Shown here: in pieces, positions 9,161-23,288 of the stretch
Numbering within the stretch: the first letter of the stretch is position 1
Layout: each line of letters starts with the position of its first letter
Source: Escherichia coli
GTDB taxonomy: Bacteria; Pseudomonadota; Gammaproteobacteria; Enterobacterales; Enterobacteriaceae
Assembly (NCBI RefSeq): GCF_044324875.1
Contig: NZ_CP172185.1
Length of the DNA: 64,000 bases
Direction: 5' to 3' (one strand)
Translations under genes and position numbers: made by a program
Notes under the pieces: model-generated
What the model saw: only the letters and a program-made list of their open reading frames with translations
Told to the model about the DNA's origin: nothing
Database searches by the model: none

Positions 9161-9468
9161 AACAATTTCCCTTCATTGAATGAATGGAGATTTACCCAAA
9201 AACATTTCGGGCGGGATCGAGTATACACAACTAAAGCATGCGAATTACGGTGTGGGGAATTAGCGATGGGGTTTTAGGATAATTGGAATGAATATCAAAT
9301 ATAAGTTTCAACTTATATATAAATAAGATTAAAAATCAAAAAGTTAAAATAGAATCAAAAATAATCAACCTACGTATTTTCCGAAATCAATCACGATTAA
9401 AAATTTATTTTAGGATTAACCTCACAGCATGATTTCCGTTAAATCACAGACAAGGGGATTTATCTGAT

Positions 9469-9495
9469 AAAAAATGCCGACATAACGTCGGCATT
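9469..9495 (-). terminator. Rho-independent terminator of pgi
   Basis: Minus-strand hairpin AATGCCGACGTTATGTCGGCATT followed by TTTTTT, 19 bp downstream of the pgi stop. Confidence 0.75.
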
Positions 9496-9513
9496 GTTAT
9501 TAAGGTTATTTAA

Positions 9514-11163
9514 TTAACCGCGCCACGCTTTATAGCGGTTAATCAGACCATTGGTCGAGCTATCGTGGCTGCTGATTTCTTTATCATCTTTCAGCTCTGG
9601 CAGAATACGGTTCGCCAGTTGTTTACCCAGCTCCACGCCCCACTGGTCGAAGGTGAAGATGTTCAGAATCACGCCCTGAGTAAAGATTTTGTGCTCATAC
9701 AGCGCAATCAACGCACCCAGGCTGAACGGAGTGATTTCGCGCAGCAGGATGGAGTTGGTCGGGCGGTTACCTTCGAACACTTTGAACGGCACCACGTAGT
9801 CAAGCGTTGCCGGATCTTTACCCTGATCACGATATTCCTGCTCAACCACTTCGCGGGATTTACCAAACGCCAGCGCTTCGGTCTGAGCAAAGAAGTTAGA
9901 CAGCAGTTTCTGGTGATGATCAGAGAGCGGGTTATGGGTGATAGCCGGGGCGATGAAATCGCACGGTACCATTTTGGTTCCCTGGTGGATCAGCTGGTAG
10001 AACGCGTGCTGACCGTTAGTGCCTGGTTCACCCCAGATAATCGGGCCAGTCTGGTAATTCACGACGTTACCGTTACGGTCAACGTACTTACCGTTGGACT
10101 CCATATTGCCCTGCTGGAAGTACGCCGCGAAACGGTGCATATACTGGTCATACGGCAGAATCGCTTCAGTTTCCGCGCCAAAGAAATTGTTGTACCAGAT
10201 GCCAATCAGCGCCAGTAGTACAGGCAGGTTTTTCTCGGCAGGCGTGGTGGAGAAATGCTTGTCCATCGCGTGTGCGCCAGAAAGCAGTTCAACGAAGTTA
10301 TCAAAGCCGATGGAGAGAACAATCGACAGGCCAATCGCTGACCACAAAGAGTAACGGCCGCCAACCCAGTCCCAGAACTCGAACATGTTGGCAGTATCAA
10401 TACCAAACTCGCCAACGGCTTTGGCATTGGTTGAGAGCGCCGCAAAGTGTTTTGCAACGTGTTTTTCATCACCTGCCGCTTTCAGGAACCAGTCACGCGC
10501 GCTATGGGCGTTGGTCATAGTTTCCTGAGTGGTGAAGGTTTTAGAGGCTACCAGGAACAGCGTGGTTTCCGGGTTTACTTTTTTCAGCACTTCCGCGATG
10601 TGAGTCCCATCGACGTTAGAAACAAAGTGCATGTTCAGGTGATTTTTGTACGGACGCAGTGCTTCGGTCACCATGTACGGGCCGAGGTCAGAACCACCGA
10701 TCCCGATGTTCACTACGTCAGTGATTGCTTTGCCGGTATAACCCTTCCACTCACCGGAAATAATCGCTTCCGAGAAGGTTTTCATCTTCTCCAGCACCGC
10801 GTTGACTTCTGGCATTACGTCTTTGCCATCAACCAGAATCGGGGTATTGCTACGGTTACGCAGCGCTACGTGCAGCACGGCGCGGTTTTCAGTGCGGTTG
10901 ATCTTCTCGCCAGAGAACATCGACTTAATCGCGCCCGCCAGATCGCACTCTTTCGCCAGATCTTGTAATTTCGCCAGCGTCTCTTCAGTGATGCGGTTTT
11001 TGGAGTAATCCACCAGCATCTGATCGTCGAAGGTTGCGGAGAACTTAGAAAAACGATCGCCGTCTTTAGCAAAAAGATCGGCGATCGTAACGTCTTTCAT
11101 TTCATCGAAGTGTTTCTGTAGTGCCTGCCAGGCAGCGGTCTGCGTTGGATTGATGTTTTTCAT
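9514..11163 (-). CDS. pgi: Glucose-6-phosphate isomerase Pgi (549 aa)
   Basis: Translation [41 protein letters not shown]... is Pgi; start set at the ATG (rc of 11161-11163) instead of the upstream TTG used by the ORF track. Confidence 0.97.
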
Positions 11164-13562: not shown

Positions 13563-14435
13563 TTAACGCCCCTTCTTTTTACGCCCCGGCGAGGTAAAAC
13601 GCTTACCGTTGGACGCCGGGCGACCGCCTTTTTCCGCCGTTTTTTCCATCTTAACGACTGGACGTTTGATGCCCGCCGTTTTCGGTTTGGCCTTCGTTTT
13701 AGGTTTTGCCTCGGAAGAGGAATTTTCGATGAGCTTAAAGAGGTCGATTAACTCATCGTCAGTTAAATCGCGCCACTCACCCAGCGGAATGCCGCTTAAG
13801 CTGACGTTCATAATGCGCGTACGTTCCAGCTTTTTCACTTCGTAACCAAAGTGCTCGCACATGCGCCGGATCTGACGGTTCAGCCCCTGCACCAGGGTAA
13901 TGCGGAAGACAAACGGCGCTTCTTTTTTGACTTTGCACTTTTTCGTCACCGTCCCGAGGATCGGCACCCCCGCCCCCATACCACGAATAAATTCATCGGT
14001 AATCGGTTTATCGACCGTCACCAGATACTCTTTCTCATGATCGTTACCCGCACGGAGGATCTTATTCACTAGATCGCCGTGATTGGTGAGGAAAATCAGC
14101 CCCTGGGAGTCTTTATCCAGGCGGCCAATCGGGAACACGCGTTTGCTGTGGTTAACGAAATCGACAATGTTATCGCGCTCGCCATCTTCGGTGGTGCTGA
14201 CAATACCGACGGGCTTGTTCAGGGCGATAAGTACCAAATCTTCGGCTTCCCGAGGCTCAATCAACTGACCGTTTACTTTCACAACGTCGCCGGGTTTCAC
14301 CTGATCGCCAATGGTGGCTCGCTTGCCATTAAGGAACACATTGCCTTGCTCGATATAGCGATCCGCTTCGCGGCGTGAGCAAATTCCGCTTTCGCTGATG
14401 TATTTATTTAAACGGACTGATGAGTCGGGCAGCAT
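13563..14435 (-). CDS. rluF: 23S rRNA pseudouridine(2604) synthase RluF (290 aa)
   Basis: S4 domain plus RsuA-type pseudouridine synthase motifs; translation [40 protein letters not shown]... with Lys-rich C-terminal tail. Confidence 0.93.
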
Positions 14436-14782
14436 AAATTCTCCTGTAAAACGCGGAATATACCGTACCTCTTAGCGGGGAAAAACAGGGTTATGCGGCA
14501 ACGTCGAAATTAAATGTGATCTGCCACGCCTTTTATCACAAAAGTGTCTCCGGAAGTACGATGCAAATTTGCCTGGCAAAATAAGGATAATCAACATATT
14601 ACGAATCGCTGCACACCTGTGCTGATGACTACTACGCAGAGAAACAAATGTGCAAGAGAAAGCGCTATTTCTCCCCATGCAAAGAGTGAAAAATCGCTTT
14701 GAAAGGCCCTCATGATGGGGTTATATCAGATCAAGCGGTGAGAAAGCGTATTTGCACAAATGTGCAGAACCAGGAGGCGGCA

Positions 14783-19266: not shown

Positions 19267-20496
19267 ATGAAAACAACAGCTCTGCGTCTTTATGGTAAAC
19301 GTGATTTACGCCTGGAAACCTTTGATCTTCCTGAAATGCAGGAGGATGAAATCCTCGCGGCGGTGGTCACTGACAGCCTGTGCCTCTCTTCCTGGAAAGA
19401 GGCCAATCTGGGTGAAAACCATAAAAAAGTACCCGATGATGTGGCGACCAATCCCATCATCATCGGCCACGAATTTTGCGGCGATATTCTGGCCGTGGGT
19501 AAAAAGTGGCAGCACAAATTCCAGCCGGGTCAGCGTTATGTGATTCAGGCCAACCTGCAATTCCCTGACCGCCCGGATTGCCCCGGCTACTCCTTCCCGT
19601 GGGTAGGCGGCGAAGCGACGCATGTGGTTATTCCCAACGAGGTCATGGAACAAGATTGCCTGCTGGCATACGACGGCGAAACCTATTTTGAAGGCTCGCT
19701 GGTTGAACCGCTTTCCTGCGTGATTGGCGCGTTCAACGCCAACTATCATCTTCAGGAAGGTAGTTATAACCACACGATGGGGATTCGCCCGCAAGGGCGC
19801 ACGCTGATCCTCGGCGGCACCGGACCAATGGGACTGTTGGCGATTGATTATGCGCTGCATGGACCCATTAACCCGTCGCTGCTCGTCATTACCGATACCG
19901 ACAACGATAAATTGAGTTATGCGCGCAAGCACTATCCATCAGAATCGCAAACACTGATTCATTATCTCAATGCCACCGATGCAGCATTTGATACGTTAAT
20001 GGCGCTGAGTGGCGGTCACGGCTTCGATGATATTTTCGTCTTTGTGCCTAATGAAGGACTGGTGACTCTCGCCTCTTCCTTGCTGGCGACAGATGGTTGC
20101 CTGAATTTCTTCGCCGGACCGCAGGATAAACATTTCAGCGCGCCAATTAATTTCTACGATGTGCATTATGCATTTACCCACTACGTGGGCACGTCAGGCG
20201 GCAATACCGATGACATGCGCGCAGCAGTCAAATTGATTGAAGAGAAAAAAGTGCAGGCCGCAAAAGTGGTAACACATATTCTTGGGCTGAATGCCGCGGG
20301 CGAAACCACGCTTGAATTGCCTGCCGTCGGCGGCGGCAAAAAGCTGGTGTATACCGGGAAATACCTGCCGCTTATGTCACTCACGCAGATTCAGGATCAA
20401 GCACTGGCGGCAATTCTGGCGCGTCATCAGGGGATCTGGTCCGGTGAGGCGGAGCAATATCTGCTCACTCATGCAGAGGCAATTTCCCATGATTAA
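19267..20496 (+). CDS. sorE: L-sorbose-1-phosphate reductase SorE-like, zinc/MDR-type alcohol dehydrogenase fold (409 aa)
   Basis: Last gene of the sor cluster; MDR-family features (GHEFCGDI); start at MKTTALRL preceded by GGTGG RBS (ORF track starts 4 codons earlier). Confidence 0.8.
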   Translation: MKTTALRLYGKRDLRLETFDLPEMQEDEILAAVVTDSLCLSSWKEANLGENHKKVPDDVATNPIIIGHEFCGDILAVGKKWQHKFQPGQRYVIQANLQFPDRPDCPGYSFPWVGGEATHVVIPNEVMEQDCLLAYDGETYFEGSLVEPLSCVIGAFNANYHLQEGSYNHTMGIRPQGRTLILGGTGPMGLLAIDYALHGPINPSLLVITDTDNDKLSYARKHYPSESQTLIHYLNATDAAFDTLMALSGGHGFDDIFVFVPNEGLVTLASSLLATDGCLNFFAGPQDKHFSAPINFYDVHYAFTHYVGTSGGNTDDMRAAVKLIEEKKVQAAKVVTHILGLNAAGETTLELPAVGGGKKLVYTGKYLPLMSLTQIQDQALAAILARHQGIWSGEAEQYLLTHAEAISHD

Positions 20497-20654
20497 TCGC
20501 GCTACTTAACTCTGCATGTCGCTGGCTGGTCGCCGCGGCAACTTCGCGACCGGATGTGCGGCTGATTGCTGAAGCAGCACAATTTGCATGAGAAGGATAA
20601 AAAATATCAGCGCCTTAAGGGGCGCTCAAATTGGTGGCAAAGTACACATTGTTT

Positions 20655-20757
20655 ATGCCGGATGCGGAATGAAGCCTTATTCGGCATACATAATCTCGAA
20701 AATTCAATATATTGCAGTTATCTGGTAGGCCTGGTAAGCGTAGCGCATCAGGCAATG
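20655..20757. repeat. Two REP-type palindromic units in the sorE-pepE intergenic region
   Basis: TGCCGGATGCGGAATGAAGCCTTATTCGGCATA and GGTAGGCCTGGTAAGCGTAGCGCATCAGGCAATG resemble the REP consensus (GCCGGATG.../...GCATCAGGC). Confidence 0.75.
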
Positions 20758-20877
20758 CTGTGTTTGTCATCAGTCTCAGCGCCCGGTGCAATACGTGACA
20801 TCGTGAGCCATGTCAGTAAGTGGTTAAATTCGCAGTGGTAGCATGCCTTCCGTGATTTCTTACTAACCGGAGAAGTA

Positions 20878-21567
20878 ATGGAACTGCTTTTATTGAGTAA
20901 CTCAACGCTGCCGGGTAAAGCCTGGCTGGTACATGCACTGCCGCTAATTGCTGAACAGTTGCAGGGTCGCCGCTCAGCGGTGTTTATCCCTTTCGCTGGC
21001 GTAACGCAGACCTGGGATGATTACACAGCGAAAACGGCTGCGGTTCTCGCTCCGCTGGGTGTTTCTGTCACCGGTATTCATAGCGTTGTCGATCCCGTTG
21101 CCGCGATTGAAAATGCTGAGATCGTGATTGTCGGCGGCGGTAATACTTTCCAGTTGCTGAAACAGTGCCGCGAGCGCGGGCTGCTGGCACCAATTACTGA
21201 CGTGGTGAAACGTGGCGCGCTGTATATTGGCTGGAGCGCAGGCGCTAACCTTGCTTGCCCAACCATTCGTACCACCAACGATATGCCGATTGTCGATCCG
21301 CAAGGTTTCGATGCGCTAAATCTGTTCCCGCTGCAAATCAACCCGCACTTCACCAACGCGCTGCCGGAAGGTCATAAAGGTGAAACCCGTGAACAGCGTA
21401 TTCGCGAACTGCTGGTCGTCGCGCCAGAACTCACAATTATTGGTCTACCGGAAGGTAACTGGATCACGGTGAGTAAAGGTCACGCTACGCTGGGTGGCCC
21501 GAACACCACTTATGTGTTTAAGGCTGGTGAAGAAGCGGTTCCGCTGGAAGCGGGTCACCGTTTTTAA
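20878..21567 (+). CDS. pepE: Alpha-aspartyl dipeptidase PepE (peptidase E, S51 family; 229 aa)
   Basis: Translation [41 protein letters not shown]... matches PepE. Confidence 0.95.
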
Positions 21568-21574
21568 GTGAATT

Positions 21575-21641
21575 GCCGGATGCATGATCCGGCATCTTGT
21601 ACATAATGCCTGATGCGACGCTTTACGCGTCTTATCAGGCC
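21575..21641. repeat. REP palindromic units between convergent pepE and yjbB
   Basis: GCCGGATGCATGATCCGGCAT and GCCTGATGCGACGCTTTACGCGTCTTATCAGGCC. Confidence 0.8.
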
Positions 21642-21656
21642 TTCAGGGGCGCAGTA

Positions 21657-23288
21657 TTAATACTCGTCCCGTCCTTCATCTTCATCAGGCTGTTCCAGCA
21701 CACTGTAAGCGACTGAACAAAACAGCGAGTTCAGACGTTGCATATCTCCCAATAAGCCTAAATGTAGCGAACTGGTTTCAATACTCTGCACGTTTTGCTG
21801 ATGCAGGCGATCGACGTGGGCGTGGGAATAGCGGCGATTAAGAATGCGAAAACGATGTTTGCTGCGGCGCAAACGACGGGCGCTGGTAACATCGCCAGAG
21901 AAGAAAACCGACATTGCCAGTTTTAAATTACTGAGCAATTGCTCATAGAGCGCATCCAGTTCCTTCAAGCCATCAAGCGAAAATGCTCGCCTTGCAGCCA
22001 GCGATTTGTCGGCAATTTCACTACCCATGCGCTCGACGATATCGGAGGCCTGTTCAAGGTTTAGCGACATTTCGATGATCTCCGCCCAGCGGCGCGACTC
22101 TTCTTCTGCCAGTTCCTCTTTTGGCATTCGCGCCAGATAAAGTTTAATCGCGGTATAGAGCACGTTGATATCATCCGCCAGCTTGCGCAGCTCTTTCTCC
22201 TGCCGTGGCTCGCCGTGCATCACTTTATTCAACCCTTCCATCATCTGTTCCATGGCGTCGCCAATGCGCAGGGTTTCGCGCGCGGCGTTCGCCAGAGCAA
22301 GCGTGGGCGTATCCAGCGCGCTGACATCCAGATGTTTAGGCCGTAGCTGGGTATCCAGTTCCGGTTCATCGCGAATAATCGTTTTGCAAAACCGTGCCAT
22401 CGGGTCAACAAATGGCAGCATGACCAGGCAACGTACAAGGTTGTAGAAGACGTGGAAATAGATCACCAGTTCCGCTTTTGGCAATGACAACTTCCCCATT
22501 GTCTCTGCCAGCAAATGAACAAACGGCAGGATAATCAGGCTACCCACCAGCTTAAACAGCAGACTACCCAGCGCGACACGGCGGGCTGCGGCATTGGCGG
22601 CACTGTTGTTGAGCATCGCCAGCAGGCCGGAACCGAGGTTAGCACCAATCACCAGACAGAGCGCCACGGGGAAGGAGATAATGCCTGCAGCGGTCAGAGT
22701 CGCGGTCAGCAGTACAGCAGCAAGGCTGGAGTAGCTGATAATGGCGAACATCGCGCCAATCAGCGCATCCAGCAAAATGTCGCCAGTCAGCGAGGCAAAG
22801 ATCACCTGAACGCCGTTTGCCTGGGTGATCGGCGTTACGGCCTGCACAATCAACTCCAACGCCAGCAAAATCAACCCAAGACCAATACCGACGCGGCCCA
22901 GTTGCCCGGCGCGTGACTGTTTGCGTCCGAGGAAAAAAATCACGCCGATAAAAATAAGTAATGGTGACAGCCAGGATAAATCGAAGGTGAGAATACGCGC
23001 CATTAGCGCCGTCCCGACATCTGCACCCAGCACAATCACCAGAGCCGGTGCGAGGGCTACCAGATCCTGAGCGACGAACGAGGTCACCAGCATGGTGGTG
23101 GCATTACTGCTCTGTACCAGTGCGGTAACGCCGATCCCCGCGCAAAAGGCGAGCGGCTTTTTTTCGACGCTCCGGCTAAGGACAGTACGCAAACGCGCGC
23201 CGAAGACGCGCATTACGCCGGTTCGAACAATATGAGTCCCCCAGACCAGCAGGGCGACGGCAGAAAGCAGGTGAAGCAGCGTTAACAC
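21657..23288 (-). CDS. yjbB: YjbB, Na+/phosphate symporter (PNaS) family membrane protein with C-terminal PhoU-like domain (543 aa)
   Basis: Hydrophobic N-terminal half, charged helical C-terminal half; translation MLTLLHLLSAVALLVWGTHIVRTGVMRVFGARLRTVL... Confidence 0.9.
   Translation of the reverse strand: MLTLLHLLSAVALLVWGTHIVRTGVMRVFGARLRTVLSRSVEKKPLAFCAGIGVTALVQSSNATTMLVTSFVAQDLVALAPALVIVLGADVGTALMARILTFDLSWLSPLLIFIGVIFFLGRKQSRAGQLGRVGIGLGLILLALELIVQAVTPITQANGVQVIFASLTGDILLDALIGAMFAIISYSSLAAVLLTATLTAAGIISFPVALCLVIGANLGSGLLAMLNNSAANAAARRVALGSLLFKLVGSLIILPFVHLLAETMGKLSLPKAELVIYFHVFYNLVRCLVMLPFVDPMARFCKTIIRDEPELDTQLRPKHLDVSALDTPTLALANAARETLRIGDAMEQMMEGLNKVMHGEPRQEKELRKLADDINVLYTAIKLYLARMPKEELAEEESRRWAEIIEMSLNLEQASDIVERMGSEIADKSLAARRAFSLDGLKELDALYEQLLSNLKLAMSVFFSGDVTSARRLRRSKHRFRILNRRYSHAHVDRLHQQNVQSIETSSLHLGLLGDMQRLNSLFCSVAYSVLEQPDEDEGRDEY

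Follow-up and report, generated by a model that had tools for sequence, protein, structure and literature searches.

The DNA analyzed here, referred to as the window throughout, is the whole 64,000-nucleotide (64-kb) stretch of Escherichia coli contig NZ_CP172185.1. It carries yjbD, followed by rluF (13563-14435, minus strand), a seven-gene sorbose block, pepE (20878-21567) and yjbB (21657-23288, minus strand), an order for which the RefSeq annotation of near-identical strains was used alongside the sequence. The sorbose block encodes a sorC-like regulator, an SDR oxidoreductase, the PTS components IIA, IIB, IIC and IID, and SorE, the sorE gene ending at 20496. This study concerns the spacer between the sorE stop codon (20494-20496) and the pepE ATG (20878). 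An earlier reading made from the letters alone (hereafter the sequence-only reading) had delimited this spacer as it is found here, had noticed two REP-like palindromes and no sensible ORF in it, and had proposed that the repeats could be both the scar of an acquired island and a regulatory determinant upstream of pepE. The repeat was correctly spotted in that reading, but over-interpreted.

There is indeed no intact ORF in the spacer, but a gene relic at 20489-20600 had been overlooked. Three ORFs listed for the region (20566-20841 and 20588-20728 on the plus strand, 20615-20791 on the minus strand) were discarded as genes, as they cross repeat sequence and none of the strains checked has them annotated; PGAP annotates no feature in the sorE-pepE spacer of any sor+ strain fetched. 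The relic came to light in a blast search of pepE loci from 80 species with the spacer as query. The match was split in four taxa, namely E. whittamii, Escherichia sp. MOD1, E. albertii and a divergent E. coli, where window positions 20497-20546 aligned right after sorE and were followed by 700-701 additional bp and then by the equivalent of 20547-20877. The additional segment is the body of sdhL, a gene of 270 amino acids whose ATG overlaps the sorE stop codon. The intact SdhL of E. whittamii scored 462.5 bits on the NCBIfam model NF009202 (shikimate 5-dehydrogenase), well over the cut-off of 306, and the relic is collinear with the ends of this parent gene.

What survives of sdhL in the window amounts to 112 nt, the first 58 nt plus the last 54 nt of the gene. 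The 5' relic of this shikimate-5-dehydrogenase-like gene (20489-20546, plus strand), with its ATG still overlapping the sorE stop, aligns at 88-94% identity with the opening 50-58 nt of intact sdhL from E. whittamii, Escherichia sp., E. albertii and E. coli SCPM, and is interrupted by an in-frame TAA at 20507-20509 (codon 7). The 3' relic (20547-20600, plus strand) comprises the last 17 codons and the original stop TAA at 20598-20600. The two stubs are joined at 20546/20547 by an internal, frame-shifting deletion of 700 bp that left them mutually out of frame, the relic translating as RPDVRLIAEAAQFA-stop-EG-stop where the intact gene gives MRPDAQLIAEAAQFAREG-stop. Identical junction and stop were found in CFT073, in O157:H7 and in three other sor+ strains; therefore, they go back to one old deletion event. 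Intact sdhL, recognized by its internal 700 bp and annotated 'shikimate 5-dehydrogenase', is retained by just 177 of the 5,426 complete E. coli genomes.

Downstream of sorE, sdhL was found in all six genera that carry sor (intact examples are L011, 8910-9722, and L088, 8443-9255). In Kluyvera (L012, L013, L015, L031, L032 and L036) the rluF-pepE interval consists of a sorC-like regulator (70% amino acid identity) followed by sdhL and is devoid of PTS, sorD and sorE genes, a reduced or alternative form of the locus. In the supplement of a 2025 study of the sor system, sorbose induction in ST648 gave a log2FC of 6.0 for sdhL versus 5.7 for the sor genes (PMC12817954), and this equal co-induction fits the position of sdhL as the last gene of the operon. 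We hold with high confidence that the spacer is what remains, in decayed form, of the 3' end of an ancestral operon of eight genes, sorCDFBAME-sdhL, a judgement that covers our preferred explanation as a whole, including the repeat and the function proposed for it below. The ancestral sorbose operon of Enterobacteriaceae had an eighth gene, sdhL, whose relic is carried by most sor+ E. coli.

The repeats were assessed against a definition of REPs as imperfect palindromes of about 30-40 nt with the head GCCKGATGCG and the tail CTTATCMGGCCTAC, both motifs being searched by Hamming scans. The head occurs five times in the 64-kb window, where 0.61 occurrences are expected, and none of 100 shuffles reached five. 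All five sites (1701, 1776, 20657 on the plus strand, 20744 on the minus strand, and 21608) are intergenic. Around the spacer and pepE, the heads at 20657, 20744 and 21608 are exact and are accompanied by tails at the expected distances with one or two mismatches. The units are thus palindromes with conserved head and tail, extragenic and highly repeated, and they fold with z scores of -1.9 to -6.6. The coordinates first given for the two palindromes of the spacer were accurate to within 1-3 nt and are refined here to 20656-20689 and 20725-20754. The rluF side, said to have no comparable repeat, gave zero matches when its spacer (14436-14782) was scanned for REP motifs. Elsewhere in the window, another BIME, to which the heads at 1701 and 1776 (1701-1785) belong, lies at 1701-1826 and consists of a y REP (plus strand), a long z-type REP (minus strand) after a short linker of 15 nt, and a third, degenerate unit.

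The first unit of the spacer (20656-20689, plus strand) is a y-type REP in iREP orientation on the plus strand, with a folding energy of -16.3 kcal/mol (z = -3.75). The second (20725-20754, listed on the plus strand) is a z1-type REP inverted relative to the y unit, and folds at -14.9 kcal/mol (z = -1.9). The y and z1 names rest in part on what we take to be the consensus sequences of these families, and the z1 label was derived from the short central part of the unit and its BIME-1 context. The y unit is degenerate, with five changes with respect to the consensus. In this unit, GGCGTGAACGCC has become GGAATGAA-GCC, TCCGG has become TTCGG and CTAC has become ATAC. Loss of the two top pairs has enlarged its loop, and one C-to-T change is accommodated as a wobble pair. 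This decay of the core is common to all six sor+ E. coli sequences compared. The CTAC-to-ATAC change is confined to the sublineage of the window, which stands alone in this respect among the six aligned sequences, CFT073, O157:H7 and the others keeping CTAC. The z1 unit retains an intact 5' GTAG (20725-20728) and carries a single substitution relative to the family consensus (GATAAG to GGTAAG).

These two units are genuine REPs, as had been supposed, but they are not separate palindromes: they are the halves of one ordinary copy of BIME-1 (RIB/RIP), a composite with a linker of 35 nt that had gone unnoticed. Window positions 20650-20762 align end to end, at 84-87% identity, with elements in the ybfP-pgm interval of K-12-type strains and in the rnr-rlmB interval, and the alignment spans a y-type REP, a 35-nt linker with an identical core and an inverted short z-type REP. 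The match extends into the flanks, so that the full unit, of about 156 bp (20624-20779), aligns end to end with unlinked copies at ybfP-pgm (K-12), at rnr-rlmB and at other unrelated loci. An alignment of seven unlinked copies showed terminal inverted repeats of about 17 bp, the left one at 20624-20640 (CTCAAATTGGTGGCAAA, given as CTSAGAYTGMTGACAAA in the seven-copy alignment) and the right one at 20763-20779 (TTTGTCATCAGTCTCAG); the repeat unit thus exceeds the two REPs. The terminal repeats pair as outer arms in the predicted fold of a 194-nt region (z = -4.5) and are, we presume, probably the outer 'A/B' motifs of Gilson et al. 1991. The L linker (20690-20724) contains a 16-nt core, AATTCAATATATTGCA (20701-20716), found exactly in 14 fetched loci, every one of them a BIME-1 copy. 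Overlapping this core, ATTCAATATATTG (20702-20714) has one mismatch to the IHF consensus WATCAANNNNTTR and is a candidate IHF site. Queries of 113-131 nt from the element found at least 19-50 places per genome among the matches listed, in 5,425 of 5,426 complete E. coli genomes, and a search of Rfam with the sorE-pepE BIME-1 returned zero matches. The element is a typical member of a long-known repeat family, and the presence of REPs and BIMEs in intergenic regions of E. coli is textbook knowledge.

Directly after the sdhL stop codon lies a GC-rich hairpin (AGCGCCU/GGGCGCU, 20609-20626, plus strand), with a folding energy of -11.4 kcal/mol (z = -3.96) and no U-tract on the plus strand. The hairpin is kept in Pseudocitrobacter and Kluyvera, with or without a BIME after it, and BIME-1 begins within its 3' foot. 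A terminator-like match on the minus strand (20626-20609) might have belonged to a convergent gene since lost, a reading that was rejected: the lost gene is on the plus strand, the T-run (an A-run on the plus strand) exists only in this lineage, and the hairpin is the conserved post-sdhL stem-loop.

E. whittamii, Escherichia sp. MOD1, E. coli SCPM and E. coli JNEC-KY178 likewise carry BIME-1 at this site, the copy of JNEC-KY178 with a 12-bp deletion in the linker. In E. albertii NBRC 107761 (L010, 3602-4177) there are 3.9 tandem copies with a period of 147, each unit joining the BIME to the loop and the 3' half of the hairpin. In two Pseudocitrobacter genomes (L041, 9688-9833; L049, about 9440-9570) the whole BIME-1 starts at the same nucleotide in inverted orientation, as a result of either an independent insertion or an inversion in situ; in P. 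vendiensis (L039) the site is empty. REP motifs were found in this spacer in none of Klebsiella, Raoultella, Enterobacter and Citrobacter, nor in most Kluyvera, K. georgiana being the sole Kluyvera with such matches (two to the REP tail). Because the element is common to other Escherichia species, it very probably arrived here before E. coli split from E. whittamii and E. albertii, and we are equally confident, again as part of the preferred explanation, that it has behaved as a module of gain, loss and amplification of about 147-171 bp.

A further allele, of the E. coli MS1718 type, combines intact sdhL with a 122-bp spacer that has neither the BIME nor the 3' half of the hairpin, and was found in 174 genomes at 99% identity or more. 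Its junction, CAGCGCCTT/GTTTGCCA, agrees with the right flank in E. albertii. This allele was considered as the ancestral empty site and rejected, as it is missing the hairpin 3' half retained by BIME-less outgroups. Because the BIME is missing together with the 3' half of a conserved hairpin, we read the allele as a secondary deletion, which would have occurred between short direct repeats. An 8-nt direct repeat, TCAGCGCC, at 20606-20613 and 20776-20783 brackets hairpin and BIME and appears to have been the substrate. It was also all that the search for a clean target-site duplication around the BIME yielded, and it overlaps the right terminal inverted repeat. Altogether, the spacer region is a hotspot of indels and recombination with at least five alleles. 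The allelic series of this one BIME-1, which is present, decayed, inverted, four-fold amplified or deleted depending on the genome, should be of use for studies of repeat gain and loss.

The occurrence of opposite orientations at one nucleotide, the co-amplification of half a hairpin in E. albertii and its co-excision in ST648-type E. coli can also be put together in a more specific way, in which BIME-1, bounded by its 17-bp terminal inverted repeats, would move as a MITE-like module of about 155 bp and target the 3' foot of operon-terminal GC hairpins. We advance this tentatively and consider it rather improbable; if true, the locus would offer a natural series of intermediates for the movement of BIME-1, by a REP-associated transposase (RAYT) or by replication slippage.

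Compared with K-12, homology of the window stops at 14470 and resumes at 20788, with 6,317 bp in place of 86 bp. The K-12 comparison suggested in the sequence-only reading showed that the REPs of the spacer are absent from the K-12 rluF-pepE interval, so that the outcome named there as refuting did not arise, although the premise of an acquired island behind it fails (see below), and that the pair past pepE is common to K-12. The REPs also lie inside the sor-linked segment, 9-30 bp from the point at which K-12 homology resumes. Together with the hotspot character of the spacer, with its five or more alleles, and with identity profiles that change between sorE/sdhL and pepE in JNEC-KY178 and Pseudocitrobacter, these traits are what could be expected if the REP cluster were the scar of a horizontally acquired sor island in whose integration the REPs took part. 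However, the order rluF-sorCDFBAME-sdhL-pepE-yjbB is shared by Escherichia, Pseudocitrobacter, Citrobacter, Klebsiella, Raoultella and Enterobacter, and sor has diverged as its flanks have: nucleotide identity to E. whittamii is 90-95% for the sor genes versus 91-92% for rluF, pepE and yjbB, and to K. michiganensis 74-85% versus 79-82%. The block is thus neither absent from this locus in relatives nor discordant in divergence. Searches at the sor block found no tRNA and no integrase, and the longest direct repeat between the two sor junctions was of 6 nt, which is the chance level. GC content (0.48-0.55) is like that of the flanks, with no anomaly in composition, and the rluF side has no REP. 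In addition, the right junction of K-12 fits the BIME-less allele (CCAGAAGCAATG) better than the BIME-bearing one, and the junction between sor+ and sor- sequences falls at the upstream edge of the conserved pepE promoter. The island-scar reading is largely refuted already by this evidence, and we give it next to no credence.

Since sor is syntenic in six genera and its divergence tracks that of the flanks, the sequence comparison indicates that K-12 has lost sor, not that the window has gained it. Part of the 86 bp of K-12 can be aligned with the spacer next to rluF in sor-bearing Klebsiella, Kluyvera and Citrobacter, which is how a deletion derivative would be expected to look. About 45 bp of this filler (L001, 2906-2991) had no match among the fetched loci. 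Sor-negative alleles differ in the middle of the spacer while sharing their edges, the 86 bp of K-12 standing against some 260 unrelated bp in Escherichia sp. E1V33 (L009, 5200-5459). The full spacer was found in 2,681 of 5,424 complete E. coli genomes, about half being sor-negative, and a published survey gives the share of genomes with sor as above 86% in every phylogroup other than A (9.6%) and B1 (12.1%) (PMC12817954). Relic and synteny imply that phylogroups A and B1 lost sor, and that it was not gained by pathogenic lineages. Relative to the window, JNEC-KY178 (L089) is 98-99.8% identical over sor and 91-93% over pepE and yjbB, and Pseudocitrobacter (L041, L039) is 86-92% identical from rluF through sor and 80-82% over pepE and yjbB; these shifts in identity between sorE/sdhL and pepE suggest recombination breakpoints in or near the spacer.

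The segment shared with sor-negative E. coli such as K-12 (20788-20877, plus strand, K-12 homology beginning at 20788) corresponds to the pepE promoter region. Escherichia, Enterobacter, Kluyvera, Raoultella and Intestinirhabdus share a conserved sequence from about 20795 to the pepE ATG, upstream of which the spacer is variable. On the basis of this cross-genus conservation and of geometry, a promoter is proposed that consists of a predicted CRP/FNR-like motif, cGTGA-N6-TCAg (cGTGA-GCCATG-TCAg, 20802-20817, within a 22-bp site at 20799-20820), a predicted extended -10 element, TGgTAGCAT (20836-20844), and, further downstream, the Shine-Dalgarno sequence GGAG (20870-20873), all on the plus strand. 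A sigma-70 scan of the region returned no promoter. The centre of the CRP/FNR-like site lies 29.5 nt upstream of the -10 hexamer, which reads as a class II geometry. In Salmonella, pepE is CRP-dependent. In K-12, pepE is listed as directly activated by FNR (PMC3688515), with which the class II geometry is consistent.

This block is found in every allele, sor+ or sor-, with or without a BIME. All indel junctions end just upstream of it, and the sor+/sor- junction at 20788 is situated at its edge, not at a REP, a boundary likely due to selection to keep the pepE promoter and not due to the REPs. The repeats had also been proposed as a determinant of pepE regulation, and BIME-1 could conceivably serve as an IHF-dependent upstream element or as a stabilizing 5' structure: the predicted pepE promoter is 60-100 bp downstream of it, and the activity of class II CRP/FNR promoters can be modulated when IHF bends the DNA upstream of them. 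The conserved block, however, is downstream of the repeat and is complete in alleles without a BIME, including K-12, the MS1718 type and other genera, and the predicted transcription start (about 20851) is downstream of BIME-1 as well, leaving the element outside the pepE mRNA unless there is read-through. Values for pepE expression were looked for in the supplements of the sorbose study (PMC12817954) and were not found. A role of BIME-1 in pepE control is very unlikely, and the allelic comparison predicts that pepE expression does not need the element.

Past pepE, the second REP pair that had been described is present at 21574-21643 (plus strand), between the convergent genes pepE and yjbB. 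It is made of a short GCCGGAT/ATCCGGC hairpin and a long z-type REP (21605-21643) in the same orientation, which fold at -14.1 (z = -3.5) and -21.3 (z = -6.6), respectively. Because K-12 has the same pair, it is unrelated to sor. The long REP has TTC in the window where K-12 has CTAC, at the position of the GTAG complement. IS1397 is specific for the loop of REPs. In strain 7/2 (L003, 9130-10561), a copy of IS1397 sits in the loop of this long REP with a 3-bp TTA duplication (window 21623-21625), in agreement with the documented REP-specific insertion of this element (PMC1525189), and this is an independent sign of a bona fide REP. In the same strain, a block with CTX-M-14, IS903B and a lamB fragment replaces rluF and the 5' end of the gene for the sorC-like regulator.

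The composition of the spacer, its gene relic, the repeat-family membership and the order of evolutionary events were established above; for the function of BIME-1 we infer a role from family precedent. No intrinsic terminator was found on the plus strand between sorE and pepE, so that sor transcripts would be expected to run on, cross about 110 nt of untranslated relic and the hairpin, and then enter the BIME. REP stem-loops are known to hinder 3' exonucleases, and BIMEs to favour Rho-dependent termination and to bind IHF (summarized in PMC2817692 and PMC3184786). By analogy, the stem-loops would block 3' exonucleases acting on sor mRNA and, with Rho, would attenuate read-through and thereby insulate pepE. 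In the DNA itself, the linker would be bound by IHF. Our best guess is that BIME-1 plays a part in the 3' end of sor mRNA and curbs read-through into pepE. As part of the 3' UTR of sor, it is likely, to judge from its relatives, that the element may stabilize or attenuate sor transcripts, and the RNA-stabilizing role mentioned in the sequence-only reading is in this sense plausible for the family.

The decay of the y unit, the 174 genomes without the element and the 12-bp linker deletion of JNEC-KY178 argue against strong selection on BIME-1. Since it has decayed, has been deleted in those 174 genomes and is missing from this operon in other genera, it is probably selfish in origin and dispensable. 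A stricter version of this, to which we give a chance somewhat short of even, holds that the copy is purely selfish or neutral, a MITE-like sequence with no effect on sor or pepE that is drifting to decay. It accounts well for the five changes of the y unit, for the loss of CTAC/GTAG in the window lineage and for an element that is deleted in some E. coli, four-fold in E. albertii, inverted in Pseudocitrobacter and missing from most other genera. It accounts less well for the fact that both hairpins still fold well and that the linker core has been kept exactly, in a family with documented IHF binding and documented effects on termination and stability. Neutrality is compatible with our preferred explanation of the spacer as a decayed operon end bearing an old BIME-1, the sole difference being any phenotypic effect.

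The traits of the locus can be compared with those of known systems. The gene order of the window is that of the sor operon sorCDFBAME of Klebsiella and E. coli. The same study that reported sorbose induction called sdhL ST648-specific and placed it 'upstream' of the operon (PMC12817954); here, sdhL is downstream of sorE, is found across genera and persists as a 112-nt relic in other sor+ E. coli. By comparison with Rfam naRNA4 (RF02564), a nucleoid-associated RNA derived from REP325, the pepE-yjbB pair is alike since both are REP pairs, but it scored 47.6 bits (E = 4e-6), under the gathering score of 59.5, and this locus is not the naRNA4 locus. As REPs do, the long REP past pepE has received IS1397 in its loop. 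With regard to the targets of TnpA_REP (RAYT), which needs the 5' GTAG of the REP (PMC3333891), the z1 unit of the window keeps the required tetranucleotide; the y unit reads GTAT in this strain, and because GTAG is absent it would not be expected to be bound. BIME-1 has been described as a pair of y and z1 REPs present in single copy, the long L linker being well conserved and often having an IHF site (Ton-Hoang et al. 2012, PMC3333891). Like other BIME-1 of E. coli, the element of the window combines one y REP with one inverted z1 REP across a long, conserved L linker that includes an IHF-type site, and it occurs as a single copy at the 3' end of a transcription unit, downstream of the last gene of the sor operon. 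Unlike them, its y unit is degenerate, with an enlarged loop, a wobble pair and GTAT in place of GTAG, and, whereas BIME-1 is described as single-copy, the orthologous locus of E. albertii carries four tandem copies.
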